Virus record (IMG/VR): IMGVR_UViG_3300030095_005132
Span: 1 to 64,000 of that record
Origin: a virus
Lineage: Duplodnaviria; Caudoviricetes
DNA length: 64,000 bases
Reading direction: 5' to 3' (one strand)
The position numbers and the translations under genes are program-made. The notes under the pieces are model-generated. The model worked only from the letters and a program-made list of their open reading frames with translations. It made no database searches and was not told where the DNA came from. Below, piece after piece: positions 3,015-40,300 of the stretch. Numbering within the stretch: the first letter of the stretch is position 1; every line of letters begins with the position of its first letter.

Positions 3015-3458
3015 ATGAAGAACTCAGCCGGGTTTACATTAGTTGAGGTAGTAGTGGCTATTGCATTGATGGGGATATTGATAGGAACCAGTGTCCCCAT
3101 TTACAATAATGTGATTACTAAAACTCAAATATCTGTTAACACATCTAATATGATAATTATAAAAGATACGTTTATGAGATATTTTAATGAAACTTACATG
3201 GACGGTAACCCGCAGCTACCAACATTACCACAAAACGCTTTATTAGATTCAACATATAATAATACAGAATTGTCAGATGGTAGAACACCAAATAATTTAT
3301 TTAATGGTGGATTACCTTTTAATTCTAATGGTAATCCTTATACTTATTATTGGGAAGCTGATACAAGCTCAAGTGGATTTATAACAAAAAAATTCTACAT
3401 AGAAGATTTAGATACGGACAGCCCTTCTTATGGAGAATTTGTAGTAGGAGAGATATGA
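3015..3458 (+). CDS. Type IV pilin-like protein
   Basis: AG|FTLVEVVVAIALMGILIGTSVPIY. Confidence 0.9.
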   Translation: MKNSAGFTLVEVVVAIALMGILIGTSVPIYNNVITKTQISVNTSNMIIIKDTFMRYFNETYMDGNPQLPTLPQNALLDSTYNNTELSDGRTPNNLFNGGLPFNSNGNPYTYYWEADTSSSGFITKKFYIEDLDTDSPSYGEFVVGEI

Positions 3459-3856
3459 TGCGAGGATACACATTAATAGAAATGCTAATAGTAATACTAT
3501 TGATAGGTATCCTCTCAACACAAGCAATACCAAGATATATGGAAAGAATAGCTTTAGAAGAATTAAAATCAGAAAAAAAATTTACATATCAGATATTTCA
3601 AGAATTGGAATTGTATGCAGAATATCAAAAGGAAAATACAGGAACAGAGAGTTGGCCAAGTAATCCATTATCTGTTTTAGGTCGTACAAGAGGTGTTATA
3701 GTTACAACTTCATTAGGAATACCTGATGAGGATAATGAGTGGCAATTTGATGGAACTAAACTATACCATAGGAGAATGAATAATGAAATTTGGTACTTTA
3801 TTTATAATGCTAGTACATTTTCATTTTCAGAAACTCCTGTTAAATTAACAAACTAA
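3455..3856 (+). CDS. Type IV pilin-like protein
   Basis: RG|YTLIEMLIVILLIGILSTQAIPRY; C-terminal WPSNP...DNEWQFD...HRRMNN resembles 2575..3003 (WPTHP...DGEWTFN...HQRNDN). Confidence 0.9.
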   Translation: MMRGYTLIEMLIVILLIGILSTQAIPRYMERIALEELKSEKKFTYQIFQELELYAEYQKENTGTESWPSNPLSVLGRTRGVIVTTSLGIPDEDNEWQFDGTKLYHRRMNNEIWYFIYNASTFSFSETPVKLTN

Positions 3857-3864
3857 GGTCGTAT

Positions 3865-4275
3865 ATGAAAAATATAGAAATTATAATATCAACATTAACT
3901 GTAATAATATTGGGATATATTTTGTATCCTAAAGAAGAGGTTAGGTTTATAGAGCCAGAGATACAAGATTACTTTGATGATTATCCAATAGAGTATTGGA
4001 AAGATACAGATAAGGGTGGTAATATAGTTTGGGTTAGATATAGAATACTACAAGACAATACTAAACTTTGGGTATTGGATAAGAATGGTGTTGTTATTCA
4101 TCAAGCACCATTTGAGTTGGATAGACACGATGATGGTAGAGATAGGATACACAAGTATAGGTGGAAATTGTATTTTACCGAATGGTCAGAAGATATAGAA
4201 CCGGGTGATTACCAAATAGTAGTTGGTAGTTTTTTAGTAAACACAACTAATTTGATAACTGAGATTACAATATGA
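3865..4275 (+). CDS. Membrane-anchored protein, possible Ig-like (FlgD-type) domain
   Basis: N-terminal TM; ...IEPGDYQIVV end motif. Confidence 0.5.
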   Translation: MKNIEIIISTLTVIILGYILYPKEEVRFIEPEIQDYFDDYPIEYWKDTDKGGNIVWVRYRILQDNTKLWVLDKNGVVIHQAPFELDRHDDGRDRIHKYRWKLYFTEWSEDIEPGDYQIVVGSFLVNTTNLITEITI

Positions 4276-4394
4276 GTTGGACTGCATTAGCTGTTATTTG
4301 TTTAGGAGCTTGTTTGGTATGGGAGCTAGATGAACAACAAATAATAAAAAAATATAAAAAGAAAAAGAGAATTGAACAACAGGAGAAAAAATGA
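4272..4394 (+). CDS. Small membrane protein (40 aa, not in ORF track)
   Basis: MSWTALAVICLGACLVWELDEQQIIKK...; ATGA overlaps with both neighbours. Confidence 0.6.
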   Translation: MSWTALAVICLGACLVWELDEQQIIKKYKKKKRIEQQEKK

Positions 4395-4750
4395 GATACT
4401 TACCTTTATTATTAATAAGTGTTATATTAGGACAAGATTCAACTGATGTTGAGTTGGATTTAGATGCTATGTGGGAAAATACCGTATGGGAAGAAATCCA
4501 AGATGTTACAGATGTTTATTATGAAGTGGAGTATGTTACAGCAGTTGCTGGTGTTCGTGGAGCAGAAGCTGAAGATGAGGCTCTAGCATTATTATATTAT
4601 AGAAAAAGCATGAAAGGATTATCCAGATTAGATTTACAAAAAGCTTTGGGTAAGCTTATTATCAAACGTGAGAAGATGTCTGATGATAGTGATACAAAAA
4701 AAATAGATGGTTATATTTTACAATTAAGAAGAAAATTAAAAAAAGTGTAA
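4391..4750 (+). CDS. Secreted hypothetical protein
   Basis: Signal peptide, SD AGGAG, TAVAGVRGAE motif. Confidence 0.6.
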   Translation: MRYLPLLLISVILGQDSTDVELDLDAMWENTVWEEIQDVTDVYYEVEYVTAVAGVRGAEAEDEALALLYYRKSMKGLSRLDLQKALGKLIIKREKMSDDSDTKKIDGYILQLRRKLKKV

Positions 4751-4756
4751 AAAAAA

Positions 4757-4790
4757 TTGTATTTGAGAATATATACATATATATATTAAT
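4757..4790 (+). promoter_or_regulatory. Class-3 promoter motif (TTGTAT...ATATATATTA)
   Basis: Same arrangement upstream of tRNA-Gly (20813-20846) and at 44371-44405; 3' part also before hsp20 (13580-13591). Confidence 0.45.
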
Positions 4791-4823
4791 GTATCAAATA
4801 CGATACAAATGTTTTTTGACAAT

Positions 4824-5240
4824 TTGAAAATTTGAAAAGTGCAGAGAGTAATTAACTCTGTATGGGATTGGTCGAATAATGAGTAGATGATGAAGCTCAT
4901 AAGACAATCTATCGAGAAGTTGTGGTGACTAACCTACCGCCTAATGTGGTGGTCATAAAAAACGGTTTCAAGACATATGACTCGAAATGTACTTTCAGAA
5001 ACTAAACGTTGATTCGTTGACCTTTTTATGGGTAAGGGTAAAACCGAAATCCCATCTTGTGGCTGAATAATTTAGTCTCAGAGAGATAAGGCAATATCAC
5101 AGACATTGTAGTCGCTCTAACGTAGAATTAACCATCTATTAGGAGAACCAGTATAACTTCTGGGTGATAGGTAAAAGGTAATAAAAATCTGAGCTGAAAG
5201 TTGTAGGTATTCAATAATCCTACATCCCCCTAATTTTCAA
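4824..5240 (+). ncRNA. Large structured ncRNA candidate (~417 nt), family unidentified
   Basis: No ORF; closing stem TTGAAAATT(4824)/AATTTTCAA(5232) and many nested helices; upstream promoter motif and downstream terminator. Confidence 0.7.
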
Positions 5241-5248
5241 TATTATAT

Positions 5249-5320
5249 AAAAAGGGTTCAACCGATTTTTAGTTTCCACTATACTTTAAACTTAAAAAAC
5301 TACAGAACCCTTTTTTTATT
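5249..5320 (+). terminator. Terminator-like long hairpin
   Basis: AAAAAGGGTTC ... GAACCCTTTTTTT. Confidence 0.55.
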
Positions 5321-5331
5321 TAAAAAAAACC

Positions 5332-5361
5332 TTGACTCGTATTGCAATTCTTTTGTATCTT
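5332..5361 (+). promoter_or_regulatory. Early sigma70-type promoter (copy 1 of 8)
   Basis: TTGACT-N18-TATCTT with conserved spacer yGTATTGCA. Confidence 0.7.
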
Positions 5362-5366
5362 CTTGT

Positions 5367-5504
5367 ATGATGAGAGAGACTTTAAGAATGATTTTGTTGA
5401 TGTTTGTTTTAATAACGGACAATGCTAGTTTCTTAAATCTTAAAAAAAATCAAAAAAAATTAAAAAAAGACTTGACTTGTATTACATTTAATGTGTATAT
5501 TTAG
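5367..5504 (+). CDS. Possible leaderless small ORF (45 aa)
   Basis: ATG 5 nt after -10 box; MMRETLRMILLMFVLITDNASF... Confidence 0.3.
   Translation: MMRETLRMILLMFVLITDNASFLNLKKNQKKLKKDLTCITFNVYI
5472..5501 (+). promoter_or_regulatory. Early sigma70-type promoter (copy 2)
   Basis: TTGACT-N18-TATATT. Confidence 0.75.
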
Positions 5505-5506
5505 GT

Positions 5507-7618
5507 ATGAAAAAAAGGGAAAATATGAAAGAAAAACTTAAAAACTTTAACCCGATGGCTCTCAGAGAGAAATACTCTGCTAGTAACATCACTAACAATT
5601 ATTCTTCCTTTTGGAGTGATAATGATGTTAGAAGAACTTCTATCTTTGATGAAGATGAGCCTGTTAAGAAGGGTGTTGATTTAGTTGCACTGGCTTCTTA
5701 TCGTAGAGCTATCAGTAACTTTGTTTCTATCGTAACTGGCAAATCTGATATAAAAGTTACCTTTAATGCGCACGGAGATAGTTATACCGATGGTAAATCA
5801 GTTGTTATATCTTCTAAATTAGATGATAAGTTATTTGATTCAACTGTTGGTTTGGCTCTTCATGAAGGTAGTCACATTAAACTTTCAGATTTTGATTTTC
5901 TAAAACAACTCAGAAATAATATTCCACAAGAATATGTTAGGAGAGCTGAAGTATTTGGTTGGAGCGAGTATGATGTAAAAGATAAAGTTAAAAACTTACT
6001 TAACTATGTTGAGGATAGACGAATTGATTATTTTGTCTTTTCAAATTCACCAGGCTACAAAGGTTATTATCATTCAATGTATGATAAGTACTTTCATTCT
6101 AAGATTATCGATAAGGCTTTAGTTACTGATGAATATACTGATAATGATTGGGATTCATACATTTTCAGAATCATTAACCTTACTAATAAAAATTCTAACT
6201 TAGACGCTCTACCAGGTCTCAGAGAAATTCACTCCCTTATTTTTAAGAATGTAAAAAATCTTAATTCTACAAAAGATGCTTTTGATGTCGCTCTTAAAAT
6301 ATTTCATATTATATTAGATAATGTAGATGTTAAACCTGCTGCTACTGATAATGAAAATAAAGATGGTCAGGAATCATCTGATGAGAAAGAATCTAATGAG
6401 AGTCAAAGTGCTAGTGATGGTGATGGTAATGGTGGTGAGGGTTCTGAGTCAATCTCTGATGAAGAATTGGATGATATGATTGAAAGTGGTCTTACAGAGG
6501 GTAATGGTAGTGGTGATAAAAAAGTTGAACTTACTCCTAATCAGAAAAAACAACTTGAAAACGCCATAAAGAAACAAAATAAGTTTATGGATGGTGATAT
6601 TCAGAAGAAGAAACTTTCTAAAAAAGATAAATCTTCAATAGATACCGTTGAAGCTGCGGGTATGAGTTATGTTGATGTTGCTGGTGCTACTGATACTTAT
6701 ACCGGTAAAAAAATTCCTACTAAAGTATTAATGGTTAAGAAATTCAACAAAGCTTTGGCTGAATCTGGCACTATCCGTATGATTCAAAATCCGGAATACA
6801 GATGGCACTCAGATGAATACAATGAAGCCATCAATAAAGGTTTAGTGATGGGAACTATCTTAGGTAAGAAACTTCAGGTGCGTGGTGAGACTCGTGAGAC
6901 TAAGTGGTCTCGTTTAGATAGTGGTCGTATTGATAAGAGATTAGTTGCTGAGCTTGGGTTTGGTAATGAGAGAGTTTTCAAAACCACTTTTGTAGAATCT
7001 TATTCAGATGCTTTTCTTCACATTTCTGTTGACGCCTCTGGTTCAATGGGTGGGGATAAGTGGACAAATACTCAGACTTCTGTTGCTGCGATAGCTAAGG
7101 CTTGTTCAATGATTCAAAATGTTGATTTGGTTATTTCTTACAGAAGTACACAGGACTCACAAAATGGTAGAGGTAAAGGAACTTACAGTCCACTAATGTT
7201 GATTGCTTATGATTCCAGAGTTGATAAGATTTCAAAGATTAAGAATCTGTTTCATCTACTTCAACCATCAGGTACCACACCAGAAGGTTTATGTTTTGAG
7301 GCTGTGATGAAGGAAATCGAAATGAGTTCTAATGATAAAGATTCTTACTTTCTAAATTTTTCTGATGGGATGCCAATGTTTCAAAATGATGATGTGAGTT
7401 ATTATCATGACACCGCTATTAATCACACCGCTAAAATGGTTAAAGACATTCGTAATCGTGGTGTTAAGGTTCTTAGTTACTTTATCGGTGGTAGATATGA
7501 TTATCGTGATGAAAAACAAACATTCACAAAAATGTATGGTAAGGGAGCTGCTTTCGTTGATGTAACTTCGGTACTGGCTGTTGCTAAAACAATGAACAAA
7601 CTATTCTTGGAGAAATAA
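5507..7618 (+). CDS. CobT-like protein: N-terminal HExxH metallopeptidase-like domain + C-terminal VWA domain
   Basis: ALHEGSH, NYVEDRRID, acidic linker, MIDAS VDASGSM, GTTP, FSDGMP; SD-led start at 5525. Confidence 0.85.
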   Translation: MKKRENMKEKLKNFNPMALREKYSASNITNNYSSFWSDNDVRRTSIFDEDEPVKKGVDLVALASYRRAISNFVSIVTGKSDIKVTFNAHGDSYTDGKSVVISSKLDDKLFDSTVGLALHEGSHIKLSDFDFLKQLRNNIPQEYVRRAEVFGWSEYDVKDKVKNLLNYVEDRRIDYFVFSNSPGYKGYYHSMYDKYFHSKIIDKALVTDEYTDNDWDSYIFRIINLTNKNSNLDALPGLREIHSLIFKNVKNLNSTKDAFDVALKIFHIILDNVDVKPAATDNENKDGQESSDEKESNESQSASDGDGNGGEGSESISDEELDDMIESGLTEGNGSGDKKVELTPNQKKQLENAIKKQNKFMDGDIQKKKLSKKDKSSIDTVEAAGMSYVDVAGATDTYTGKKIPTKVLMVKKFNKALAESGTIRMIQNPEYRWHSDEYNEAINKGLVMGTILGKKLQVRGETRETKWSRLDSGRIDKRLVAELGFGNERVFKTTFVESYSDAFLHISVDASGSMGGDKWTNTQTSVAAIAKACSMIQNVDLVISYRSTQDSQNGRGKGTYSPLMLIAYDSRVDKISKIKNLFHLLQPSGTTPEGLCFEAVMKEIEMSSNDKDSYFLNFSDGMPMFQNDDVSYYHDTAINHTAKMVKDIRNRGVKVLSYFIGGRYDYRDEKQTFTKMYGKGAAFVDVTSVLAVAKTMNKLFLEK

Positions 7619-7619
7619 A

Positions 7620-7772
7620 ATGAGTTTCAATGCTTACAGTAAAAAAACAAGAAATAAACTTGAGATAATTCTGGCAGAACACATTAAACAAATTAGAAGG
7701 TCAATGCCTTGGTCAGGTGAGAATACTCACATCGTTAAAAAAATAATGAAATTATTTAGAGAAACTACTTGA
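7620..7772 (+). CDS. Small hypothetical protein (50 aa)
   Basis: SD GGAG, MSFNAYSKKTRNKLEIILAEH... Confidence 0.5.
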   Translation: MSFNAYSKKTRNKLEIILAEHIKQIRRSMPWSGENTHIVKKIMKLFRETT

Positions 7773-7798
7773 CTTGTATTGCAATTATTTTGTATATT
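7769..7798 (+). promoter_or_regulatory. Early sigma70-type promoter (copy 3)
   Basis: TTGACT-N18-TATATT. Confidence 0.75.
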
Positions 7799-7803
7799 CA
7801 TAT

Positions 7804-7995
7804 ATGACAAACGGAGAAAAAATGAAGAAGTTAAAAAATACTAAAAAAACAAAAAAAACTGATATTGGTTATGGGGTTAAAAAAATAGCCCTTACTGATA
7901 TGAAAAAAGATAATGTGATGTTCGATGACTTGGATGGGTACTTCGGTAATCCTACTGATGAATTAGATAAATTAGTTGAAGATTTTTTAAAATAA
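7804..7995 (+). CDS. Hypothetical protein
   Basis: Start at 7804 or SD-led 7822; listed start 7774 lies inside the promoter. Confidence 0.6.
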   Translation: MTNGEKMKKLKNTKKTKKTDIGYGVKKIALTDMKKDNVMFDDLDGYFGNPTDELDKLVEDFLK

Positions 7996-7998
7996 GTC

Positions 7999-8028
7999 TT
8001 GACTCGTATTGCATTTTTTTTGTATATT
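7999..8028 (+). promoter_or_regulatory. Early sigma70-type promoter (copy 4)
   Basis: TTGACT-N18-TATATT. Confidence 0.75.
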
Positions 8029-8033
8029 AAGGT

Positions 8034-9242
8034 ATGAGAAATGAGAGATTCACTAACAATTCAAATCAAAAAAAAGGAAAAAAAGATATGAATAAAAAAG
8101 TAGTTCAAATAATAAAATCAGGCAATAGGTTTAATGCTTGGGATGCTGATGGTAATAAATATACATCACAAATTTCTAATGGTACTCGAAAGAGTGCTTT
8201 CAATACCAATATGGCTCTTGAACAAAGGGTTAATAAAAATGGTAAAACCTTTTGGTGGAAAGTTCCAATGTCAGAATTTGAGGCTAGTTCAGCTCCTGTC
8301 ATTGATGTTTCATCAGTTGATGTTCCTACAGAACATGCTGAGGTTCTAAATTTCATTCACTCTTCTTATAGTCTCAAACCACAAGGTTTGGTTATGAAAG
8401 AATTGAAGTGGAAGTATTTAGTTCGTTCAGCCGTTAGAGGTAAGAACATTTTGATGACAGGTCCTGCTGGATGTGGAAAAACTATGGCGGCTAAGTCATT
8501 GGTTAATTCGCTAGATAGGGCTGACTTCTACTTTAATTTGGGTGCGACACAAGACCCCAGAGCCACTTTGATTGGTAATACTCACTTCGATAAGAAGAAA
8601 GGTACTTACTTCTCTGAGGCTTTGTTTGTCAAAGCAATTCAGACTCCTAACGCTGTTATTCTGTTAGATGAGTTGAGTCGGGCTCATCCAGATGCTTGGA
8701 ATATTCTGATGACAGTATTAGATAGTGGTCAGAGATATCTTCGTTTGGATGAAGGTGAAGGTCAGGAAACCATCAATGTGGCTGATGGTGTTACTTTCGT
8801 TGCTACCGCTAATGTAGGTAATGAGTATACTTCTACCAGAGTTATGGATAAGGCTTTGATGGATAGATTCATTATTGTAGAAATGGATGTTTTGACTTCT
8901 GATGAAGAACATGGGTTGTTGAACTATATGTTTCCACATGTTGATTCAGAACTTCTAAAGTCTGTTGCTGAGATTTCTTCCGCAACTCGTAGTGAGTCAA
9001 AGTCTGAGGCTGGTAGATTGTCTGCTGGAATTTCAACCAGAACTTCTGTTGAGATTGCTGGACTTCTCTTTGATGGTTTCGGATTAGATGAAGCGGCTGA
9101 AGTAACTGTCTATCCTCAGTTTTCTGATGATGGTGGGCTTGAGTCTGAAAGAACCTATGTGAAGCAGCTTGTACAGAAGTATGTTTCTGATGGTTCTTCC
9201 GATGACTTGTTCAATGAAGATGAAGTTGAGAATGCTAACTAA
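8034..9242 (+). CDS. MoxR/CobS/CbbQ-type AAA+ ATPase
   Basis: Walker A GPAGCGKT, Walker B ILLDELSR, ATAN, ALMDRF; partner of upstream VWA protein; SD-led start 8088. Confidence 0.9.
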   Translation: MRNERFTNNSNQKKGKKDMNKKVVQIIKSGNRFNAWDADGNKYTSQISNGTRKSAFNTNMALEQRVNKNGKTFWWKVPMSEFEASSAPVIDVSSVDVPTEHAEVLNFIHSSYSLKPQGLVMKELKWKYLVRSAVRGKNILMTGPAGCGKTMAAKSLVNSLDRADFYFNLGATQDPRATLIGNTHFDKKKGTYFSEALFVKAIQTPNAVILLDELSRAHPDAWNILMTVLDSGQRYLRLDEGEGQETINVADGVTFVATANVGNEYTSTRVMDKALMDRFIIVEMDVLTSDEEHGLLNYMFPHVDSELLKSVAEISSATRSESKSEAGRLSAGISTRTSVEIAGLLFDGFGLDEAAEVTVYPQFSDDGGLESERTYVKQLVQKYVSDGSSDDLFNEDEVENAN

Positions 9243-9258
9243 GTTTTTCTCTCTGTGG

Positions 9259-9323
9259 GTGGTGGTTAAAAAAAGTTAACCACCGCTCGGGTGGTCGGTT
9301 TTAATTCCTTTCTCCGGCCACCC
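9259..9323 (+). other. Two tandem GC-rich hairpins after AAA gene
   Basis: GTGGTGGTTAA/TTAACCACCGC and GGGTGGTCGG/CCGGCCACCC. Confidence 0.6.
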
Positions 9324-9355
9324 AAAAAAATTTAACTAAAAATACGGAAATAAAT

Positions 9356-9499
9356 ATGAAAAATATAATAGAAAAAGTTTTAAAAAGATATAAGGATAGG
9401 CAATTGAATTTAAGTTCTAAAGGAATAAGAGAAAGTTTAGCCGCTGAAATAACAGCAGTTTTAATACAACACTATAACATAAAAGAAAAAGAAGGTTAA
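9356..9499 (+). CDS. Small hypothetical protein (47 aa)
   Basis: MKNIIEKVLKRYKDRQLNLSSKGIRESLAAEI... Confidence 0.5.
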   Translation: MKNIIEKVLKRYKDRQLNLSSKGIRESLAAEITAVLIQHYNIKEKEG

Positions 9500-9502
9500 A
9501 AA

Positions 9503-9790
9503 ATGAAAAGAAGTCAATACTCAGCTTATGAGAATTATATTTTAATGTGCGATAAAAGTAGAGGATTTAAAGCAACTTATCCTCACTTCCTAAACTTCTC
9601 AGAAGTTAAAAAGTTTGCAAAACAAATAGCAAGCGTGGGAGCAGACACATTTACTTACGAGGGTAATATTTATAGTAAGAGAATAACAACCTCTGATGCG
9701 CAACGTATGTTGGATAGCTTAGATACAAATAATAAATGTGACTATTGGATGTTCAGGTTACTTGCGACTCAACTGAATATTCAACTTTAA
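9503..9790 (+). CDS. Hypothetical protein
   Basis: ORF in operon context. Confidence 0.6.
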   Translation: MKRSQYSAYENYILMCDKSRGFKATYPHFLNFSEVKKFAKQIASVGADTFTYEGNIYSKRITTSDAQRMLDSLDTNNKCDYWMFRLLATQLNIQL

Positions 9791-9802
9791 TGGAGAAATA
9801 TA

Positions 9803-10288
9803 ATGGCTAAAAAACCAGCATCATTTGAGTACAATGGTACTCTAGATAGAGTTTTAGATGGAGATACAATCGATTGTTATATCGATTTAGGTTTCGATTT
9901 AAAAATCAAAAAACGAATTAGATATATGGGTATTGATACTTGGGAAAGTAGAACCAGAGATTTAGATGAAAAGAAAAAAGGACTAGCAGCTAAGGCTCGT
10001 AATAAAGAGTTATTAGAAGCTGGGATTTTTAAAATTGTTTCACACGGAACTGGTAAGTTCGGTAGAGTATTAGGAGAAGTTTTTGTATCACCAGATTCAG
10101 TAGGTCACGAAGTAGCAGAAAATGTTGATAAGTCAGCTGATGGGTTGGTTAGTATAAATGATATACTTATTAACGAAGGTCATGCTTATGAATATGATGG
10201 TGGTAAGAAGAAAGCATTTGTAGCTGAGATAGCTACAGAGAAAGCAGCTAAGAAAGAAGATTTAGTTGATAAACCAGCAGAGGAGTAA
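9803..10288 (+). CDS. Thermonuclease (SNase-like) family protein
   Basis: RVLDGDTID, IRYMGIDTWE, GKFGRVLG, INDILINEGHA. Confidence 0.9.
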   Translation: MAKKPASFEYNGTLDRVLDGDTIDCYIDLGFDLKIKKRIRYMGIDTWESRTRDLDEKKKGLAAKARNKELLEAGIFKIVSHGTGKFGRVLGEVFVSPDSVGHEVAENVDKSADGLVSINDILINEGHAYEYDGGKKKAFVAEIATEKAAKKEDLVDKPAEE

Positions 10289-10290
10289 TT

Positions 10291-10383
10291 ATGTTGTATT
10301 TAGGTCTTAGTATTACTGTAATTATATTATATATTACATGGGTGTTTTACAAAGATGACTATAAAGACTTTTTTAAATTTTAA
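10291..10383 (+). CDS. Small membrane peptide (30 aa)
   Basis: SD GAGGAG; MLYLGLSITVIILYITWVFYKDDYKDFFKF. Confidence 0.45.
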   Translation: MLYLGLSITVIILYITWVFYKDDYKDFFKF

Positions 10384-10418
10384 TTTAAATAATCGATAAC
10401 TATACAAGGAGGCTATGA

Positions 10419-10586
10419 ATGCCAAAGAGTAAAAGTAAAGGTCAATTCGACCATTATAAGAAATGGACAACCGATGAGGGCTATACCTTTTTAGCAGAAA
10501 CTAAAGCAGATGCTTTAGATTACCTATCAACTATGCCAAATCATATGGGTGAGGTTGAATCTTTAAGAGAGGTTAAGGATGTCTAA
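10419..10586 (+). CDS. Small hypothetical protein (55 aa)
   Basis: SD AGGAGG; MPKSKSKGQFDHYKKWTTDEG... Confidence 0.6.
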   Translation: MPKSKSKGQFDHYKKWTTDEGYTFLAETKADALDYLSTMPNHMGEVESLREVKDV

Positions 10587-10779
10587 TATAGCACAAGGTA
10601 GTGTGGGTAATGAATTAGACAAAATAGCTAATGAAGTTAAAGAGCTTAGACATTCTGTAGCTAAGATATTAGAACTTCTTAGACCACCTAAAAAGAAAAC
10701 TGAAAAGTGGATAGTAGATTATAATTTAGAAAGTACTACTGTTACTGATGTTTACAAAAATGATGAAGTCAAAACGTAA
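10579..10779 (+). CDS. Hypothetical protein
   Basis: ORF, overlapping operon arrangement. Confidence 0.55.
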   Translation: MSNIAQGSVGNELDKIANEVKELRHSVAKILELLRPPKKKTEKWIVDYNLESTTVTDVYKNDEVKT

Positions 10780-10963: not shown

Positions 10964-11290
10964 ATGGAGACGATAATGTCCGAAGCTAAAGTAATTCAAA
11001 AAAAATGGGATGGTGTAGAAAGACGAAATAAAAAACCAAAACCAAAACCGATACCAACTGGTCCTGATTTATATATGGGTGGTGATGGATTGCCAGATTG
11101 GATGCAGTTTACAATTACAGGTGGTATGTTTGCAATACTATATTGGGTATTGTATTTATTATTTCATCCAACTTTAGAATTAGATGAGACACATAGAGAT
11201 TTACTGAATATTATCTTGGGTACATTTATTGCTACCTTTGGTAAGACAATTGACTTTTGGTTTAGACATTCTAAGAAAAAAGATAAGTAA
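10964..11290 (+). CDS. Two-TM membrane protein, holin candidate
   Basis: Two hydrophobic helices, basic C-terminus, upstream of endolysin. Confidence 0.5.
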   Translation: METIMSEAKVIQKKWDGVERRNKKPKPKPIPTGPDLYMGGDGLPDWMQFTITGGMFAILYWVLYLLFHPTLELDETHRDLLNIILGTFIATFGKTIDFWFRHSKKKDK

Positions 11291-11943
11291 TGAACATAGC
11301 CTTATTAGCCGGACATTTAGCATTTGGTTTAATTGCATTTTCTTTTTTAGTAAAAGATATTTTATGGTTAAGGTTAGTATCTATATTAGCTAGTTTATTT
11401 TCTGTATTTTATAACTTTTATATTCCAATTGAACCAATGTGGTTGGCTATAAATTGGAATATAGTTTTTATTATAGTAAACTTATATCACATAGCAGTAA
11501 TAATATATGAGAAAAGACCGGTTCATATGTCACCTAAACATAAAGAATTATATGAAACTATGTTTAAGGGTATGACACCAGTAGAATTTTTAAAGATTAC
11601 AAAAATAGCAGATTGGACTCACTTTAAAGAAGGTGAATTTATTACTCAACAGGGTCACAATGTTCCCACATTAAATTTAATCTATAATGGTACAGTTGAT
11701 GTTAGTGTTGGTAATAAAAAAGTAGCCGAATTAAAAGATGGTCAATTTGTAGGGGAAATGAGTTTTTTAACAGAGAAACCAGCAACTGCTACTTGTATGG
11801 CTAAACACGATACAGAATGCTTAACATGGGAACAACAAGGATTTAAAGAACTATTGAAAAGAAATCCATCGCTTTACTTTTCAATACAATCATTACTAAG
11901 TGCACAAGTATCAGAGGCATTGGTTAGTAGCAGTAAGAAATAG
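11290..11943 (+). CDS. Popeye-domain / cyclic nucleotide-binding membrane protein
   Basis: 3 TM helices (KDILWLRL, WNIVFIIVN), then cNMP-binding fold LIYNGTVDV...GQFVGEMSFLTEKPATAT. Confidence 0.85.
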   Translation: MNIALLAGHLAFGLIAFSFLVKDILWLRLVSILASLFSVFYNFYIPIEPMWLAINWNIVFIIVNLYHIAVIIYEKRPVHMSPKHKELYETMFKGMTPVEFLKITKIADWTHFKEGEFITQQGHNVPTLNLIYNGTVDVSVGNKKVAELKDGQFVGEMSFLTEKPATATCMAKHDTECLTWEQQGFKELLKRNPSLYFSIQSLLSAQVSEALVSSSKK

Positions 11944-11953
11944 GAGAAAAATA

Positions 11954-12430
11954 ATGTTAGTAGAATTTAATGATATAATCGAAGTAGTATTACACCATGA
12001 GGGTGGATATGTAAACGATCCTGATGATCCAGGTGGAGAGACTAATTTTGGCATAGCTAAACGTTCTCATCCTGATGTAGATATTGCTAACCTAACTAAA
12101 GATGGAGCAAAAGAAATTTACTATCAAGACTATTGGATGAAAAATAGAGTTCCACAATTACCTGATGATTTAAAACATATTTACTTTGATATGTGTGTAA
12201 ATCAAGGTAGAGGTAGAGCAGTAAAGATATTACAGAAAGCAGCTAATGCCAAAGGTGCTGACTTAGTTGTAGATGGTGGATTAGGACCTAAAACTATAGG
12301 AGCTCTTAAAGGCGTAGAGTTAGAAAGAGTTAGAGCTTACAGAATTAAATACTATGCAGACTTAGTTACCCGTAAGCCAGATTTAGAAAAGTTTTATTTT
12401 GGTTGGTTTAGAAGAGGACTAGAAGTGTAA
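11954..12430 (+). CDS. Endolysin, glycoside hydrolase family 108 with peptidoglycan-binding domain
   Basis: HEGGYVNDPDDPGGETNFGI, VDGGLGPKT, GWFRR; SD AGGAG before 11954. Confidence 0.92.
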   Translation: MLVEFNDIIEVVLHHEGGYVNDPDDPGGETNFGIAKRSHPDVDIANLTKDGAKEIYYQDYWMKNRVPQLPDDLKHIYFDMCVNQGRGRAVKILQKAANAKGADLVVDGGLGPKTIGALKGVELERVRAYRIKYYADLVTRKPDLEKFYFGWFRRGLEV

Positions 12431-12431
12431 A

Positions 12432-13520
12432 ATGAAGTTAATTAAAATAATTTTATCTATAGGATTATCATTTGCACAGAGCTATGTGGAAGGAGATATT
12501 GTAAGTGACTTTGGTGCTGACATATGTTACAATGGAGAAGGTTCTTGGTCTTGGGAAGAAGATGGAGTTAATAAAGTAACATTCATAGCATCTTTTGCAA
12601 CTTGGTGAGGACCATGCCAGTCGGAGGCTCCGGCAATACAAAATATACGAGAACAATATGCTGGTAACTACAATGTAGAAATAGTAACTGCTGGAATGGA
12701 TTGGGGACAACCATATAGTTGTAGTGAGTGGGCTGAAACGTTTGGATTATCAATTCCAATCTTAGATGATAATAGTGGTAATAATATTTACGGATTGTTT
12801 GGTATTGGATATGTTCCTCATAATGTAGTGATAGGTGGGAACGGATTAGTGATATTCTCAGACTCAGGATTTAATTCCAGCACTATTGTTACAATGATTG
12901 AAGAAGGATTATCTAACTTAGTATTGGATATAGACGAAGATGGTGTATTGGATGAAGCTGATAATTGTATAGATGAGTATAATCCGAACCAAGCAGATAC
13001 AGATTCAGATGGTTTAGGAGATGTTTGTGACCCTTGTAACAATCTAATATGGTCTGGTGGTGATGTCAATGGTGATTTGGAATTAAATATAGCAGATATA
13101 CTCTTGATAGTAGATATTGTATTAGGAACAAATAATAGCCAATGTGGATATGAAGCAGCTGATATCACATTGGATGGTACGTTAAATATCTTAGATGTAA
13201 TAGGATTGGTTCAGTTGGTATTGGGTGGTAATCAACAACAAGCTATGGCTTGGATAGAATTTAATTTTACAGAAGAGATGGTTAAAAATTTAACAAGAGG
13301 ATATTTTATATCCGAAAGGGTATTGGCGTGGCCTAATCCATCCAATGCTTATGTAAATCTTAATGGTGGTGGGAACGCGAGGATATATGACATTACCGGT
13401 AGGTTGGTTAAAGAGTTGGAGTTAAGTGGAACATACCGATGGGATACTAAAAAAATATCAAGTGGTATTTATAGTATTCATAACAATATGGAAATAACCA
13501 CTATAACTATTTTAAAATGA
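12432..13520 (+). CDS. Selenocysteine-containing secreted TlpA/redoxin-family protein with TSP3-like, dockerin-like and C-terminal sorting-type domains
   Basis: In frame with ORF 12696..13520 through one TGA at 12606-12608: signal peptide...SFATW-U-GPCQSEAP; DEDGVLDEADNC...DSDGLGDVCD; GDVNGDLELNIADILLIV x2; WPNPSN...IYDITGRLVK...SSGIY. Confidence 0.88.
12609..12635 (+). promoter_or_regulatory. Candidate bacterial SECIS hairpin
   Basis: Locally GC-rich TGCCAGTCGGAGGCTCCGGCA immediately 3' of the in-frame TGA; TGCC/GGCA closing stem. Confidence 0.55.
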
Positions 13521-19563: not shown

Positions 19564-19965
19564 GGGGCTGTCATGGTTTCGACAGGTGTTTTTTGAAAAT
19601 AAAGTGCAACGGAGATTGAGTAGGTCTCGCTAAAAAAGACTCAACAAACTCAAATGGCGATAATTCGCTAGACGGGTTGGTCATTGATTGGCACCTAGCT
19701 GAGTATGATTACTCACCTATGGTTGCTGTCACTAATGACGAACCAACTTACGCTTACGCTTAAGTTACTGAGTTGTCTAACACTCGGTCATAAAATAAGT
19801 TAGACACCAACTCCTCATGTTATGAGTATAAAAGAACATACGGATCTATCCAAGAAAATAGTTGGTGTGTTGCAGGTACTGTCTCAGAGGGTTGGAACCT
19901 GATAAGTTGTGAATGACTTTTTTGATAAGACAGACTGGACAGGGGTTCGATTCCCCTCAGCTCCA
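19564..19965 (+). ncRNA. ssrA: tmRNA
   Basis: 5' GGGGCTGTCATGGTTTCGAC; 3' T-arm AGGGGTTCGATTCCCCT and CAGCTCCA giving Ala acceptor with G3.U70; internal tag ORF ending YAYA-stop; CCA not encoded. Confidence 0.93.
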
Positions 19966-19983
19966 CAAAATTAAGGAAATAAA

Positions 19984-34027: not shown

Positions 34028-34342
34028 ATGCCATACACACAAGAGGAATTAAAAAACCTATCATTTTATCAAAATTTAATTGATGAGGATGAACAACAAT
34101 ACCTACAGAGAAGAGATTTGCTTAGGCTGCAATCCACTATTTCAGGATCAGCTGCTGCAGACAATCTCTTATCTAGAGATAAGGATGGAGCTGTTTTAAT
34201 TTTTGAAAATCCATATAGCGATAGCTTAGTTGAGGATGATTCTTCAAAACTTATTCATAATACTACAGTAAAATTATTGAAAACAACAGCGACTGATACT
34301 ATTATAGATGAGGTATTAGATAGGGATTTTGGGGAGTTATAG
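34028..34342 (+). CDS. Hypothetical protein
   Basis: ORF in structural operon. Confidence 0.6.
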   Translation: MPYTQEELKNLSFYQNLIDEDEQQYLQRRDLLRLQSTISGSAAADNLLSRDKDGAVLIFENPYSDSLVEDDSSKLIHNTTVKLLKTTATDTIIDEVLDRDFGEL

Positions 34343-37300
34343 TGGCTAGTAAATTAACAGAAAAACAAAAACAATTACTTGATGCTAACATTAGTACTAG
34401 AGTAGGTCAAAAGCCTTATGAGGATGGTTTGTGGGGTGAGCAAGGAAATAAAGACTTTGTTCATTTACAATTATTTGACGAAAGTAATAATCTTATAGAA
34501 TTTAAAAGTGTTCCATCTTCAGAATTTGTTATAAACACAGATAATAATAACATTGAATTTTATCCTGGTAGACATATTAGAGAATTGGGATATCAGAGTG
34601 GCGTCTTTAATATAAAATATAACTTTTTAAGAAAATTAGCAGGTGATGAGATGCCTGTGTTGTTACATACAATACAAAAAAATGATACAAAAGTTGGTGA
34701 TGTTTATACCAATATGAATGCAATATATGTAACAGAGGACTCTTTAGTTTATGCTGCTACAGAAGAAGATTATAAAAATAATCCCACCACTACTGAGCAA
34801 TTGTCTATAGAAGATTTAACATATCAAATTGATACTATATCACCAAGCAGAACTGAAGTAAGATTAAAATCTAAAAAAATAAATGGATCGTATCAAGATG
34901 ATTTTATCGATTTACAAACTGCTATAATACTAAAAGAAGTTCAGAATAAGATTAGTTTTATAGGTGGAACGCTGTATGATTCTACACAATTAATTTTAAC
35001 TTTAGAATCTTCTGGATTTTTATTTACGAAAAAAATGGTTGGTGGAACAATCACAATACCTAATGTTTTTCAAGTAAATCAAATTGATGTTCCTGTAAAG
35101 ACAAATATAAATATAGTTCAAAATCCTGCAGGAGATTTAATTGAAACCGATAATCTTGGTAATACATTAAATATTGCAACTCAAAATGAATGGGATGAAA
35201 GTTTACACGATAACGCTATTAGAGCAACACATTGGAGTGATGGGTTTGTTAATCACACAGGCACATTTGCTGGAACAGCACATATAGGTTATCACGCATA
35301 TTGGGTTGCAGAAGAAGGTAAAGGTGGGGGAAGCTGTATAAAATTTACAGATCAAAATGAACTTTTTATAGATTTACCTGAATGGCCTAATGAACAGAGA
35401 TACAGGCCTCTACTGATAACGCAGGAGATAACAAACTTGTTAGGCCAGGGTGTTACTCATAATGATATAGCTAATATAAATTTTGATATAAGAAGTACAG
35501 TTGCTAACAAGGGTGTTGAGATATCTTTAAGATATGCAGACGAAGTTTTGGTTGAAGAACAACCTCAGAATCCTCCCCCTGGATTTTTTGATCCCAGCAA
35601 CCCACAACCAACTGAAACACAACCAACCTCTCCACCAGCTGGTTATGAGCCTGCCGATTCTGCAGCAGCTAATGCTATAGAACAACAACCACCGATGAGC
35701 GAATTTGGTATAAGAGAGTTATATGGTGATTCTGTTCCCGTACCTCTTGATATTGCAGAGGGTGATGACACTACAGTTTGGGGTGGAGCAGGAGCTTGGG
35801 TTGTAACTATATTTCAACCAGAAAGACCAAGTCAAAAATATACTTGGGGTGTTAATACAGATGTTGTAGGTAATATGATGCATGGTGAATTGAGTAATGA
35901 AGAAGAATGGGTTTGGAATGCTTATTCTGAGGTGTGGACTGTTAATCCCAATCTTGCAAATTCTTTGATTGCTCCCGATGGTACAAGTGGTAAACCTAAT
36001 GCAGTTAATTATCATCCTGCTCAAATACAAGGTCAGGGTAGAGCTTATTATGAAAGAACTACCAATCGTGGTCAAAACTTAGGATGGCAAACGATGACAG
36101 TGATTGGTGATGCAAAAGTATTGTTATTCAAAGATGATTTAATTTGGGAACAAAGGCACGATCGAGGTGACTTAGATAAATTTTATTTTTACGAATTTGA
36201 CCAATATTTTCCGGCAGTGCGTAATACTGTTTTAAATGCTGGAACGGATGAAGAAAAAACCTTATATGATGATATCTTTCAGAATGGTTTTATTCAAACT
36301 GTTACAAGGGTTGGTAAGGGTAGAAATGATGGTACATATCATAATATGTTTTTAATATTTTATAATAACGGCGATACAAATGCTAGCGGCCAGATGGATG
36401 AATCGTCAAATAGATTTTTTTACATCACAACCTATGCTGGAACTTTGGATAATAGTGGAACAAATCAAGTACACAGCTATCCTAATCACGAGGGAGTAAG
36501 TACACCTTTACATTTTTTAAAAGATTTCGATGGTGGTGTGAATCAAAATGTTATTTCCAATGAAGGTAAGATGGAGTGGTGGTTTAAAGAAGATGATGGT
36601 TACACTAGGTATTACATAGCCACCGGTACAGAATATTACGCTACCAACGAAGGAGATGATGCTGGAACAGATGGTGGTCTTTATGATAATAGCATTGACA
36701 GTTACTATCCGGCACCATTAGGAGATGGTTTCGGTGATACATTGGCTAATGGTGTCGATTGTGCGGTTGGTCCGGTTGGGGGTTTTGGTAGATATAGATA
36801 TATCATTGGAGATCGTCAATATAGAGCAAAGGGTTCTGCAGCTGATGGTACGGATCGCGATAAATCTTTAAATGATGTTTTTTTCAGATGTGGTGAGGTA
36901 ATAAATCAAAATGGGGATTCTGTAACATTTGGTGTTAGGAATCCATCCGCAACGAACTACGGTGTATTTGGTGATTTTGCTGATGCCGGTGAGCTTACTG
37001 AAGCTGATGTAACACCGGTTTATGACAATGGTTTAGGTGAATATGATTTTCCTGATAATCCTCTTCAGATAGGAGTTCTTAGCGAAGGAGAAAATTGGGT
37101 ATGGGATGGAAGCCAATGGAATGACAATTCTCTTAACCCACCAAGATACAATTATAAATCTCCACCATCAACAAAACAGATACTTGCTCCAGAAATAGCT
37201 GGTGAGTGGATAAATGTGAGTGCTCAAATACCTATACCAAGTGATTGGTTGCTTGGACAAAAATGGTATTTACAAATTTATGGTAGTGGTAAGAGCCAAA

Positions 37301-40300
37301 GTGGGGCTATGGAACAAGGTATAGTATGGGTAGATAATGTATATGTAGATTTTACCCTTAGAGAACAATCACAGACTATACCTGTATATAAATCCTATTC
37401 TGCACAAATACAAAACGTGTCGTCTGATGGATCTATAATCACTGTAAATAAAACCATAAGGGACGTGGCTGTAGAAATAGGAGCAAACGATGATGATGAG
37501 GATGGTAATCCCGATATATATAATCAACCAGAGGTTGGTGATTTTGATGATTTTAGATTATCTTATACGAATTTAAATCCAAGAGATTTAAGAACTTATT
37601 TAAAATTTGAAAATAATTTGTTTTTAACTACAAATTTTAAATCAGATAGAGTTTCTGTAACATCTTTTCCTTATTCCATAGTCTATAAGTTATACGAACC
37701 TCTGCCAGATAATTATGAAAAATTTGATGAATGTATTGTAGTAAAAGAGATGGCAGACCCATTAGAAGAAAAAATTAAAATAATAGATTTTGTTAATGCG
37801 GAAGAACCTAAATTGGTTCTTAAAACTCCTGATTTAAATAATGTAGAAAGTCCGGTTCAAAGAAGGCAGACCAAGTTTCAAACTGAGTCTGAAATTTTAA
37901 CTTCTGATGCAGCTGTTTCTACCGCATTGAGAAGTGAATTTTTAAGTCAAAGTTTAGATAGTGTAAATATAAATACAGACTACTCTAGATTTGAAAATTT
38001 TGTAAACTTTGGTTCAGCTGAAGTTAGGATTAGAAATTTTAAAAGAAAATTAGAAGATATAGAACAATACAAAATCAATAGTGCTTCTTATGCTGGCGTA
38101 AGCGGTTCTTCGGGAGATATGAGCACTTATCATTATAAAATAATTGATACTGAGAATAAATTTGATAGATTTGAAAATTATATGTATTTTAAAAGCTCTT
38201 CTTATGTAAGCAGCTCGATTGGAATATTTCACGACAACGCATGGCCTAAAGCTAGTGGTGATGGAACATTAAACAGTCCTTATGTTTTAGCACATACAAC
38301 ATCATCACAAGCTGATACTTGGTTTGTAAATGCTGTAAATTCTGCATCTTTATATGATGATGACAACTCATCTAAGCTGAGTACTATACTTCCAGAACAT
38401 ATTAAGGTTGATACAAAAAATGATACATACCTAAAATTTATAGATATGATAGGTCAACATTTTGATGGTATATGGGAATATATAAATGCTGTAACCGATG
38501 TTTCAGATAGAAGGGAAAGTTTAGATGAGGGTATTTCAAAAGACTTATTATATTCTGTTGCTAAATCTTTAGGTTGGAATTTAAATGACGGAAAAGATTT
38601 AATTAGCTTATCTAAGTTTGCATTGGGTAAAGAAGTTACCGGCTCCTCTTTTTCTAACTACTCCACAACTTCAGAAAGAGATGTGTCGAGAGAAATTTGG
38701 AGTCGTATAATAAATAACATGCCATTTTTCTTAAAGAATAAGGGTACTGTTAGAGCTTTGAAAGGGTTAATAAATGTTTATGGAATACCATCTACAATTT
38801 TAAGAGTTAAGGAATATGGTGGACCTGATTTATCAGATGATGCTTCTCCTCAGTTTGAAATAACAAGAAAATTTACAAAAGCTTTAGATTTTAAAGGTGC
38901 TCAATATGTAAAGGTTGGGTGGACTGATGATTTAGAATCACAGAGAAAGCCTGATACTGTAGAATTTAGGTTTAGAGCTGCTACCGGTTCAAATCAAATC
39001 CTTGTAGAGAAGCAGGATATTAATAATCAAGATTGGTTCATAAGGTTAAAAGATAATGGTTCATCCGATAACTATGGTCAGGTTTCATTTATGTTATCAG
39101 GCTCTGCTGTTGGACAGGATATCGGTCAGTTTAAAGAAATAACATCAACATCTTTACCTATATATGATGGTGATTTTTATTCTGTTATGGTTGCTAGAAC
39201 ATCTGGAAGTAGCAATACTGCAGTATCACAATCGTACCAATTAAATGTTGGCAAGTATGATGCTAGTAGAAGTAAAATACACTTATATAGTACATCGACT
39301 ATGGATGTAACACAAGCAGCTTCTTCATCTTTTAGTAACGCGTGGACGGGTAGTGGTGATATTTACATCGGTGGTTCTGGTAGTATAGATGATGTTGGTG
39401 TACAATTTAGTGGTTCTATAATGGAATACAGGCATTGGACAGAAACATTAAATACATCATCATTTAAGAATCACATAGCTAATCCAAAAGCTTATGATGG
39501 AAATACTGTGTCATCATCTTATAGCAACTTAGTATTAAGATACTCCTTTAATGATGATAAGGATTTAACTTCTGATGTAGAGGGTATACGAGATGTTAGT
39601 TCAAACCAAACACAAACCGTATCAGGATCTCACAGTGGATTTACAGGAAACTTTTTTAGAAGCGTGGTTGATGAACAGAAAACCCACATACCAAGCATAG
39701 GTGCTTTAAGAAGAACTACGAATAAAATTAGATTAGAAGATAATAAAATAAAGCAAGGATTTAATTTAAATTCAGAACACAGAGCTACTGTAAGTGCTTA
39801 TGATACTGCACCAAGTGACTCTAATAAGGTTGGTATATGGTTTGCGCCAACGGATGTTATCAATACCGACATTATTAACTCAGTTGGTAATTTAAATTTT
39901 GATAATTATTTGGGTGATCCAAGAGATAAACAAGAGCTAAGTTATAGGGGTTTAGAGAATATAGCTGATAATTATTGGAAAAAGTATAACTCACCAAATA
40001 ATTTTTGGGATTACATTAGAATGATTAAATATTACGACCAATCATTGTATCCTCAAATAAGGAAATTAATACCAGCTAGATCAAAACCTGATATTGGGTT
40101 GTTAATTGAGCCAAATATATTTGAGAGACCAAAAGTTATTGTTGGAAAAGAACCAACCGCCGAAGATAGATTTTTTAGTTCTTCTATAAATATACCAAAT
40201 GAGGTTATTATTGTAACTGGTTCTTATAATGCTGGATTTAGTATTAGTGATTATGATTCTTATACTGGAAGAATTGATATATTTAGTTATGATTCTGGCT

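Follow-up and report, generated by a model that had tools for sequence, protein, structure and literature searches.

An in-frame UGA and a conserved downstream hairpin mark a probable selenoprotein gene in a tailed phage

The window, meaning the whole 64,000-nucleotide stretch analysed here, covers the first 64 kb of one 94,232-bp contig of 33.6% G+C, filed as virus record IMGVR_UViG_3300030095_005132. In it, a redoxin gene is broken by one stop codon. ATG 12432 and the open reading frame (ORF) 12696-13520 share one frame, as a first-pass annotation had proposed and the sequence confirms, and the sole internal stop is a TGA at codon 59, in the translated context F-A-T-W-[TGA]-G-P-C (residues 55-62). 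The ATG is one base past the TAA stop of the preceding GH108 endolysin gene, and translation table 11 lists the locus as two ORFs of 58 and 274 aa. A hairpin begins 11 nt past the UGA (Table 1). We propose that UGA 59 is very probably a selenocysteine (Sec) codon served by this hairpin as a selenocysteine insertion sequence (SECIS), and that the product is most likely a phage-encoded selenoprotein dependent on the host selenocysteine machinery.

Table 1. Features of the redoxin gene, in window coordinates
Feature	Position	Strand	Description
Whole redoxin gene	12432..13520	+	362-aa precursor if read through at UGA 59; terminal TGA stop 13518-13520
Signal-peptide-like N-terminal segment	12432..12479	+	MKLIKIILSIGLSFAQ; read from sequence
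Thioredoxin-fold redoxin domain (TlpA/ResA/DsbE-like), residues 34-147	12531..12872	+	Pfam, PDB, Foldseek
In-frame TGA, proposed selenocysteine codon	12606..12608	+	First Cys position of W-C-G-P-C thioredoxin motif
Proposed bacterial-type SECIS hairpin	12620..12634	+	6-bp stem 12620-12625/12629-12634, loop GGC 12626-12628
Thrombospondin type-3-like (TSP3) Asp-rich calcium-binding repeat region, residues 166-203	12927..13040	+	Pfam TSP_3, PDB
Dockerin-like helical pair, residues 210-256	13059..13199	+	Pfam Dockerin_1 22.7 bits (cut-off 22.9)
Type IX secretion system (T9SS) type A sorting domain, residues 300-355	13329..13496	+	PF18962, TIGR04183

The UGA is conserved wherever the codon is covered at the nucleotide level. 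All 16 IMG/VR loci reaching across the codon have TGA, as do all 44 motif-bearing loci from IMG/VR, genomes and metagenomes, found with a search pattern that permitted any residue there. Two more divergent loci, L158 and L159 (33–34% identity), have TGA as well, and the distinct Sec-form sequences with TGA total 61. The metagenome contig L158 carries two W-[TGA]-xx-C redoxin sites, at 2710 and 3916, with about 1.2 kb between them, which suggests paralogous selenoprotein genes in tandem.

The codons on both sides of the TGA evolve alike. The 42 codons upstream give dN/dS of 0.13–0.25 in five of seven pairs with relatives of the window's clade, dS being saturated in the other two, and the downstream codons give a similar 0.16–0.27, with dS saturated in one of seven pairs and a value of 1.15 for L003 that is an artefact of an indel in the ungapped comparison. 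Homologues of equal length keep their sequence on both flanks of the TGA, and the residues Q16, Y18, G21, D22, F27, C32, N34, W39, F55 and W58 upstream of it are invariant among the aligned homologues. The Met encoded at 12696 is not conserved, and homologues have GFDW, GSDW or GSEW there.

Contigs of three other studies span 12328-12719 with four to six differences, none of them listed at the TGA or the hairpin, so the TGA is retained in independent assemblies and is not a misread TGC or TGT. Sequencing error is ruled out by these assemblies and the 61 distinct sequences. With the conserved TGA, the upstream purifying selection and the unconserved Met 12696, they make the error, pseudogene and split-gene explanations very unlikely. 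UGA 59 is a conserved sense position under selection. Here the first-pass annotation, which expected UGA-bearing homologues aligned at this codon and a conserved upstream part, is borne out.

Reassignment of TGA over the genome was considered and is ruled out. The 78 non-nested ORFs of at least 80 aa in the 94-kb contig stop at TAA in 55 cases, at TAG in 14 and at TGA in nine, the redoxin gene included. When TGA is read as sense contig-wide, only a few codons are gained anywhere except at 12606. TGA is an ordinary stop elsewhere, and the recoding is site-specific, as was first supposed.

The protein databases present the family in another form. Of 4669 candidates drawn from a 5.8-billion-protein collection, 371 are relatives, and the 120 relatives listed fall into lengths of 274–298 aa, starting past the TGA, and 354–396 aa, full length. 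In an alignment of 13 relatives (12 with 96–100% coverage plus P0064; P0008-P0013 and P0015 left out), residue 59 is W in all 13. Five of them also extend into a W past the family end ...LLK or ...IVK, and two or three go some residues further. We infer that these W residues and extensions come from gene calls that read TGA as Trp. Either way, the public gene calls (P0003-P0122) are mostly truncated at the N terminus, to 274–298 aa, or W-bearing, and amount to a systematic mis-annotation of a selenoprotein family.

Codon 59 falls at a catalytic position. In phmmer searches of PDB sequences it aligns to the first Cys of the CxxC motif in ResA 4nmu (tw-C-kp-C), 3kcm and TXNDC5, where the first reading had placed it. 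Cys forms were sought with the redoxin domain as query in 201 genomes of the phylum of one bacterial match, and 73 of them matched at E ≤ 1e-10. The best 13 matches have one TGA each, and the weaker ones include stop-free frames. Nine of ten stop-free loci examined are W-C-xx-C with TGT or TGC at the codon. Together with L220, these nine (L224-L232) make ten Cys-form family members in the same bacterial phylum, so the Cys-containing homologues that were anticipated do exist. The family holds the Sec/Cys pairs expected of a bacterial selenoprotein gene.

The hairpin is encoded inside the codons Q-S-E-A-P-A and folds with -8.4 kcal/mol. Of 37 distinct 60-mers, 36 have its GAG GCT CC unchanged, even though synonymous sites fall within it, and the Glu codon that follows is mostly GAA, as the A+T-rich genome predicts. 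The stem covaries at its two outer informative pairs: alignment columns 26-36 hold CG 25 times, UA 8, UG 2 and AU 1 with 1 unpaired, and columns 25-37 hold GC 15 times, UA 8, GU 4, UG 2 and CG 1 with 7 unpaired. Of the cells in the stem alignment 83% are paired, versus 27–44% when the partner is slid by one to three columns. The covariation score is reached by none of 500 shuffles, a control that ignores relatedness, and RNAalifold unaided returns the same stem with a 5-bp core. The loops across the relatives are GGC, GGU, GAU and GUC.

Hairpin presence tracks the codon, UGA versus UGY, in a gene that sits in phage genomes. At least four in-register consecutive pairs form in 55 of 61 Sec-form 48-mers (seven pairs in 22), with a mean local minimum free energy (MFE) of -9.2 kcal/mol. 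None of 16 Cys-form 48-mers has the hairpin in register; they reach at most three such pairs and a mean of -4.6 kcal/mol (Mann-Whitney, p 3e-8 for pair counts and 2e-6 for MFE). The 16 are the ten family members and six other WCxxC genes of the same loci; L233 has no W-[C/stop]-xx-C motif and is excluded from the count. The Cys form L220 keeps the residues E-A-P and spells them GAA GCC CCA. This Sec/Cys contrast is the strongest point for a SECIS function. The GC-rich hairpin that had been pointed out past the UGA is conserved, covarying and absent from the Cys forms, and would be the downstream stem-loop of a bacterial selenoprotein gene.

A second UGA gene offers a comparison. The selD genes of three Fidelibacterota metagenome-assembled genomes (MAGs; L124-L126) have an in-frame UGA (SHGSG-U-ACK), followed after a 10-nt spacer by a GC-rich stem of 6–7 bp with a 3–5-nt loop. 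The redoxin hairpin has nearly this geometry, and both presumably resemble the minimal E. coli SECIS.

The 362-aa product and its listed domains hold up in the Pfam and NCBIfam matches and in the structure model, with a putative signal peptide. The redoxin domain scores 32.7 bits with AhpC-TSA (cut-off 26), 26 with Thioredoxin (23.5) and 25.6 with Redoxin (26.6), and matches ResA 4nmu at 4.6e-09 among PDB sequences. In the AlphaFold model (mean pLDDT 75.9; 70–92 in the redoxin and sorting domains, low in the TSP3 part) the W-U-G-P-C motif is followed by helix 60-75, as in a thioredoxin fold. Foldseek matches it best to ResA/DsbE chains and also to CcmG and pneumococcal Etrx, with target-normalised TM up to 0.86. 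The N-terminal segment is modelled as helix 3-11 at low pLDDT, and a hydrophobic N terminus is present in every full-length homologue aligned.

The remaining domains lie in the C-terminal part. Residues 166-187 score 20.5 bits with TSP_3, under the cut-off of 25, and the region matches the repeats of thrombospondin-2 and COMP in the PDB at 4e-14 to 6e-12. The TSP3 and dockerin part (residues 150-264) resembles the C-terminal module of the Omp28-related selenoprotein family NF045500 (profile positions 258-376, E 1.7e-28). The match reaches 100 bits against a cut-off of 200 and covers that module only, so the protein falls outside the family. The sorting domain, modelled as a beta-sandwich at pLDDT 86–92, is over both cut-offs (PF18962 32.1 bits versus 27; TIGR04183 28 bits versus 23), and by this domain at residues 300-355 of 362 the protein is predicted to be T9SS type A cargo.

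No NCBIfam model covers the redoxin family above its own cut-off. The product is no ResA orthologue by PRK03147 (41.8 bits versus 170) and no member of NF041054, the ResA-like WAxxUGC selenoproteins (34.5 bits versus 300), its motif being W-U-G-P-C. An ORF of the relative L153 (3001-3582) has a signal peptide, TSP3, dockerin-like module and T9SS domain without the redoxin domain, so the C-terminal module also occurs alone.

The best cellular matches are titled Fidelibacterota, Candidatus Marinimicrobia, TMED46 and Candidatus Neomarinimicrobiota, names that we take to denote the SAR406 group. Homologues with this UGA and hairpin are common in Fidelibacterota/Marinimicrobia genomes. These redoxins (for example L212-L219 and L044-L046) have the same UGA in a W-U-(GP/PS)-C site, a GGAGGCUCC-type hairpin, 40–50% identity and the same redoxin, TSP3 and dockerin-like modules, with the T9SS sorting domain in several. 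They differ in being chromosomal and in that many are longer, 492–657 aa, with extra domains. Those of L045 and L046 lie beside Omp28-related selenoprotein genes (L045 4179-5351; L046 2758-3939 and 4044-5345) that precede the redoxin gene and have the motif FTGL[LN]-U-PYC and a TSP3/dockerin tail; the L045 gene scores 508 bits with NF045500 (cut-off 200). This arrangement suggests a surface selenoprotein gene cluster.

Genes for Sec decoding are present in these bacteria. selD is over its cut-off in three of four MAGs that hold homologues, with one TGA in each. The three MAGs with full-length homologues all have selD and selB, selB being over its cut-off in each, and tRNA-Sec is over its cut-off in two of them.

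In a maximum-likelihood tree of 53 rows, viral sequences are scattered among bacterial ones, and well-supported branches force at least seven label changes. The clade of the window, with FATW-U-GPC and a short linker to the sorting domain, holds viral and metagenome rows only. Rows were dropped if they had less than 25 aa of sequence ahead of the site or less than 80 aa behind it, or if the G[YF][IVL]P motif was missing (L158, L159, L220, L224, L226, L229, L230, L232 and L233-L243). The tree is midpoint-rooted and its root arbitrary, so we infer exchange and claim no direction of transfer. That the gene is shared, that its product has a T9SS signal and that Sec machinery is needed all point to Fidelibacterota as the probable host lineage.

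The contig itself is that of a real marine tailed phage. The long ORFs of the window are all on one strand and include PHROGs matches to a baseplate wedge protein, an SbcC-like nuclease, CobT/CobS-like proteins and a primase. Past the window follow the large terminase, portal, major head protein, head-tail adaptor and tail fibre. The endolysin gene upstream encodes a GH108 lysozyme with a peptidoglycan-binding domain, and the redoxin gene lies between it and genes for Hsp20 and peptide deformylase, with a nuclease and a cyclic-nucleotide-binding protein also near. The viral locus L002 repeats the gene order of the window over about 9 kb (8-17 kb). Other viral loci have CobS-like, Hsp20 or deformylase neighbours in common with it, and the bacterial loci have none of them. 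In blastn, the redoxin gene matches nothing in 50,697 GenBank phage records.

Several observations weigh against a selenocysteine at codon 59. The hairpin is short, with 6 bp and a 3-nt loop, and taken alone it is no better than shuffles (z -0.59 for 12606-12645 and -0.06 for the 71 nt of 12600-12670); since these single-sequence scores are not significant, we judge the hairpin by comparison with homologues. An Rfam scan of the window at the gathering threshold gives tmRNA, manA RNA and tRNA and no SECIS family. Six of the 61 Sec forms, at L002, L158 (two sites), L159, L234 and L239, have no in-register stem. L002 and L239 have a different hairpin nearby, that of L239 being a 7-bp stem with a GUC loop, and for the L158 sites, L159 and L234 the local folding energy is -7.6 to -13.5 kcal/mol. 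RNA evidence comes from one metatranscriptome (run X20) whose two read-length contigs of 151 nt cover 12417-12706 at depth 2, from a library that may contain DNA; in run X24 and three further runs hardly any of the searched words are present.

The Sec genes and the host link add to these points. The 94-kb contig has no tRNA-Sec by ARAGORN or the Rfam tRNA-Sec model and no match to the selB model, CheckV estimating the contig at about 51% complete, so these negatives cover the contig and not the whole phage. Of the Sec genes that the first-pass annotation would look for in phage and host, tRNA-Sec is missing from the contig, and the candidate host-lineage MAGs carry selD (three of four) and tRNA-Sec (two of three). 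Fifteen related viral loci, with about 6 kb of flank each, and the rest of the contig also have no tRNA-Sec, and only tRNA-Ala and tRNA-Cys. A tRNA-Cys(GCA) gene lies a few kb from the redoxin gene in L001 (4150-4221) and L009 (9033-9104), and tRNA-Ala(TGC) is present in L001 and L013. The case for Fidelibacterota as host is indirect. The phage tmRNA (window 19564-19968; Rfam 93.6 bits) has a 20-residue tag of unusual sequence, EYDYSPMVAVTNDEPTYAYA. Four Fidelibacterota genomes have dissimilar tags (ADYGYMAAA, ADNGYMAAA), a difference that says nothing either way on the host.

The rival with most to be said for it is programmed read-through, in which a near-cognate tRNA would insert a standard amino acid (Trp, Cys, Gly or Arg) and the hairpin would be a stimulator, with no selenium involved. 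Downstream structures do act as signals for some stop read-through, the hairpin here is small, and neither selB nor tRNA-Sec is encoded in the 94-kb contig. The tRNA-Cys(GCA) genes of L001 and L009 could be counted in its favour, but a GCA anticodon cannot read UGA by standard wobble rules. The codon stands for the nucleophilic Cys of CxxC. Trp, Gly or Arg in its place would abolish catalysis, although purifying selection acts on the domain. Moreover, the same UGA and hairpin occur in bacteria that keep selB, tRNA-Sec and a selD itself with UGA, and the selD hairpin of these MAGs has a close geometry. We regard read-through by a standard amino acid as improbable.

Less probable still is that translation ends at 12606, leaving a 58-aa peptide and a separate 274-aa product from ATG 12696, or that the gene is a decaying pseudogene. 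The automatic calls in the databases are mostly of the 274–298-aa form and table 11 gives the two pieces, but the 274-aa form would lack both signal peptide and active site, its Met is unconserved and the upstream codons are under in-frame purifying selection. As to decay, other lesions would accumulate in a pseudogene, whereas 61 distinct sequences, at identities as low as 33%, all have the TGA and show no other disruption. We give as little credence to the gene being bacterial, carried into the record by a chimeric assembly or a bacterial fragment filed as viral. Viral and bacterial rows do interleave in the tree, and L010 and L012, labelled viral, adjoin bacterial clades, so some labels may be wrong. 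Against this, the gene sits between the endolysin and Hsp20/deformylase genes of a co-oriented contig with terminase, portal, capsid, baseplate and tail fibre; its gene order recurs in L002 and its neighbours in several viral but no bacterial loci; and the contigs of other studies span the endolysin-redoxin junction.

If codon 59 is read as selenocysteine, the host SelB.GTP.Sec-tRNASec complex would bind the hairpin as a bacterial SECIS and insert the residue there, with the machinery supplied by the host and none of its own on the phage contig. The precursor would pass the inner membrane by its signal peptide through the Sec translocation route and the outer membrane by T9SS to reach the surface of the infected cell, where the calcium-binding and dockerin-like module may tether it. 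The U-G-P-C centre might then act as a highly nucleophilic selenolate, either a thiol-disulfide oxidoreductase or a peroxide scavenger during infection, and the phage product could replace the host's own surface selenoproteins. Of these steps the redox function has the weakest support, since an extracellular redoxin has no obvious source of electrons. Phage and host lineages may have swapped the gene along with its SECIS.

A broader proposal goes with this. It is that a widespread marine tailed phage lineage, probably infecting Fidelibacterota/Marinimicrobia (SAR406), encodes true selenoproteins, has repeatedly exchanged the UxxC gene and its SECIS with its hosts, and displays the Sec enzyme through the host's SelB, tRNA-Sec and T9SS, the first such case described in bacteriophages. 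We hold the proposal as a whole to be only slightly better than an even bet. In what is supported, both the mechanism and the protein fold are already known, and it is the carrier that is new.

The E. coli fdhF SECIS is a stem-loop just past the UGA, bound by SelB, whose minimal upper stem-loop of about 17 nt lies about 11 nt downstream. The phage hairpin is likewise inside the coding sequence, 11 nt past the UGA, 15–17 nt long and with G at the first loop positions. It differs in its 3-nt loop, the lack of a bulged U and its unrelated sequence. Pneumococcal Etrx1/Etrx2, ResA, CcmG and DsbE share the fold (Foldseek ranks 1-50, target-normalised TM 0.7–0.86), the extracytoplasmic location and CxxC with the predicted product, but their active sites use Cys, they are anchored in a membrane or by a lipid, and their electron donors and substrates are known.

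In the literature searched, the viral selenoproteins known so far are from eukaryotic viruses. The accessible text of PMC8310308 names as viral ones solely the glutathione peroxidase homologues of the poxviruses molluscum contagiosum virus and fowlpox virus. These too are host-derived redox selenoprotein genes in a virus that relies on host Sec machinery, and the fowlpox SECIS lies in the coding region (same text). They differ in belonging to eukaryotic viruses, with a eukaryotic SECIS and SBP2 and the glutathione peroxidase family, whereas here a bacteriophage would use a bacterial SelB-type signal, a CxxC thioredoxin fold and T9SS.

Our literature search, which covered main texts outside subscription journals, found no report of a bacteriophage selenoprotein, in line with the earlier remark that such proteins are rarely reported. 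The accessible portions of PMC5029168 and of a 2026 Actinomarina preprint have no phage selenoprotein content. A marine metagenome survey states, in its accessible part, that the selenoprotein families examined have no or very few viral sequences (PMC9402790). The marine family lists behind that survey and earlier Global Ocean Sampling work may already include bacterial or even phage members.

Sec decoding depends on a tRNA reserved for it, on an elongation factor and on an RNA signal in cis. A virus with a retained UGA/SECIS gene is bound to Sec-competent cells and draws on a scarce trace element while infecting. If the broader proposal is true, the selenium available in the ocean would bear on both phage fitness and host range. 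The redoxin family would add bacteriophages to the carriers of selenoprotein genes and would be a sequence-based host marker linking an uncultured phage group with an uncultured, abundant ocean phylum. Its hairpin would be a compact natural SECIS of 15–17 nt for which Sec/Cys pairs provide ready controls, useful in work on how SelB recognises RNA beyond Proteobacteria and Firmicutes. The family would also flag a systematic annotation error in database entries.

Some other features of the window lie apart from the redoxin gene. Two genes upstream of it, 11290-11943 encodes a cyclic-nucleotide-binding domain with a POPDC-like match (Pfam 1e-15 and 6e-15). Very large ORFs occur at 34342-41025 (2227 aa, with no PHROG match), at 49378-59559 (3393 aa) and in L245 at 3118-10599 (2493 aa). 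A manA RNA motif (RF01745) at 5027-5228, full length and with 65.9 bits, lies upstream of the CobT-like gene 5507-7618, and the gene for a CobS-like AAA ATPase, 8034-9242, is also downstream of it.

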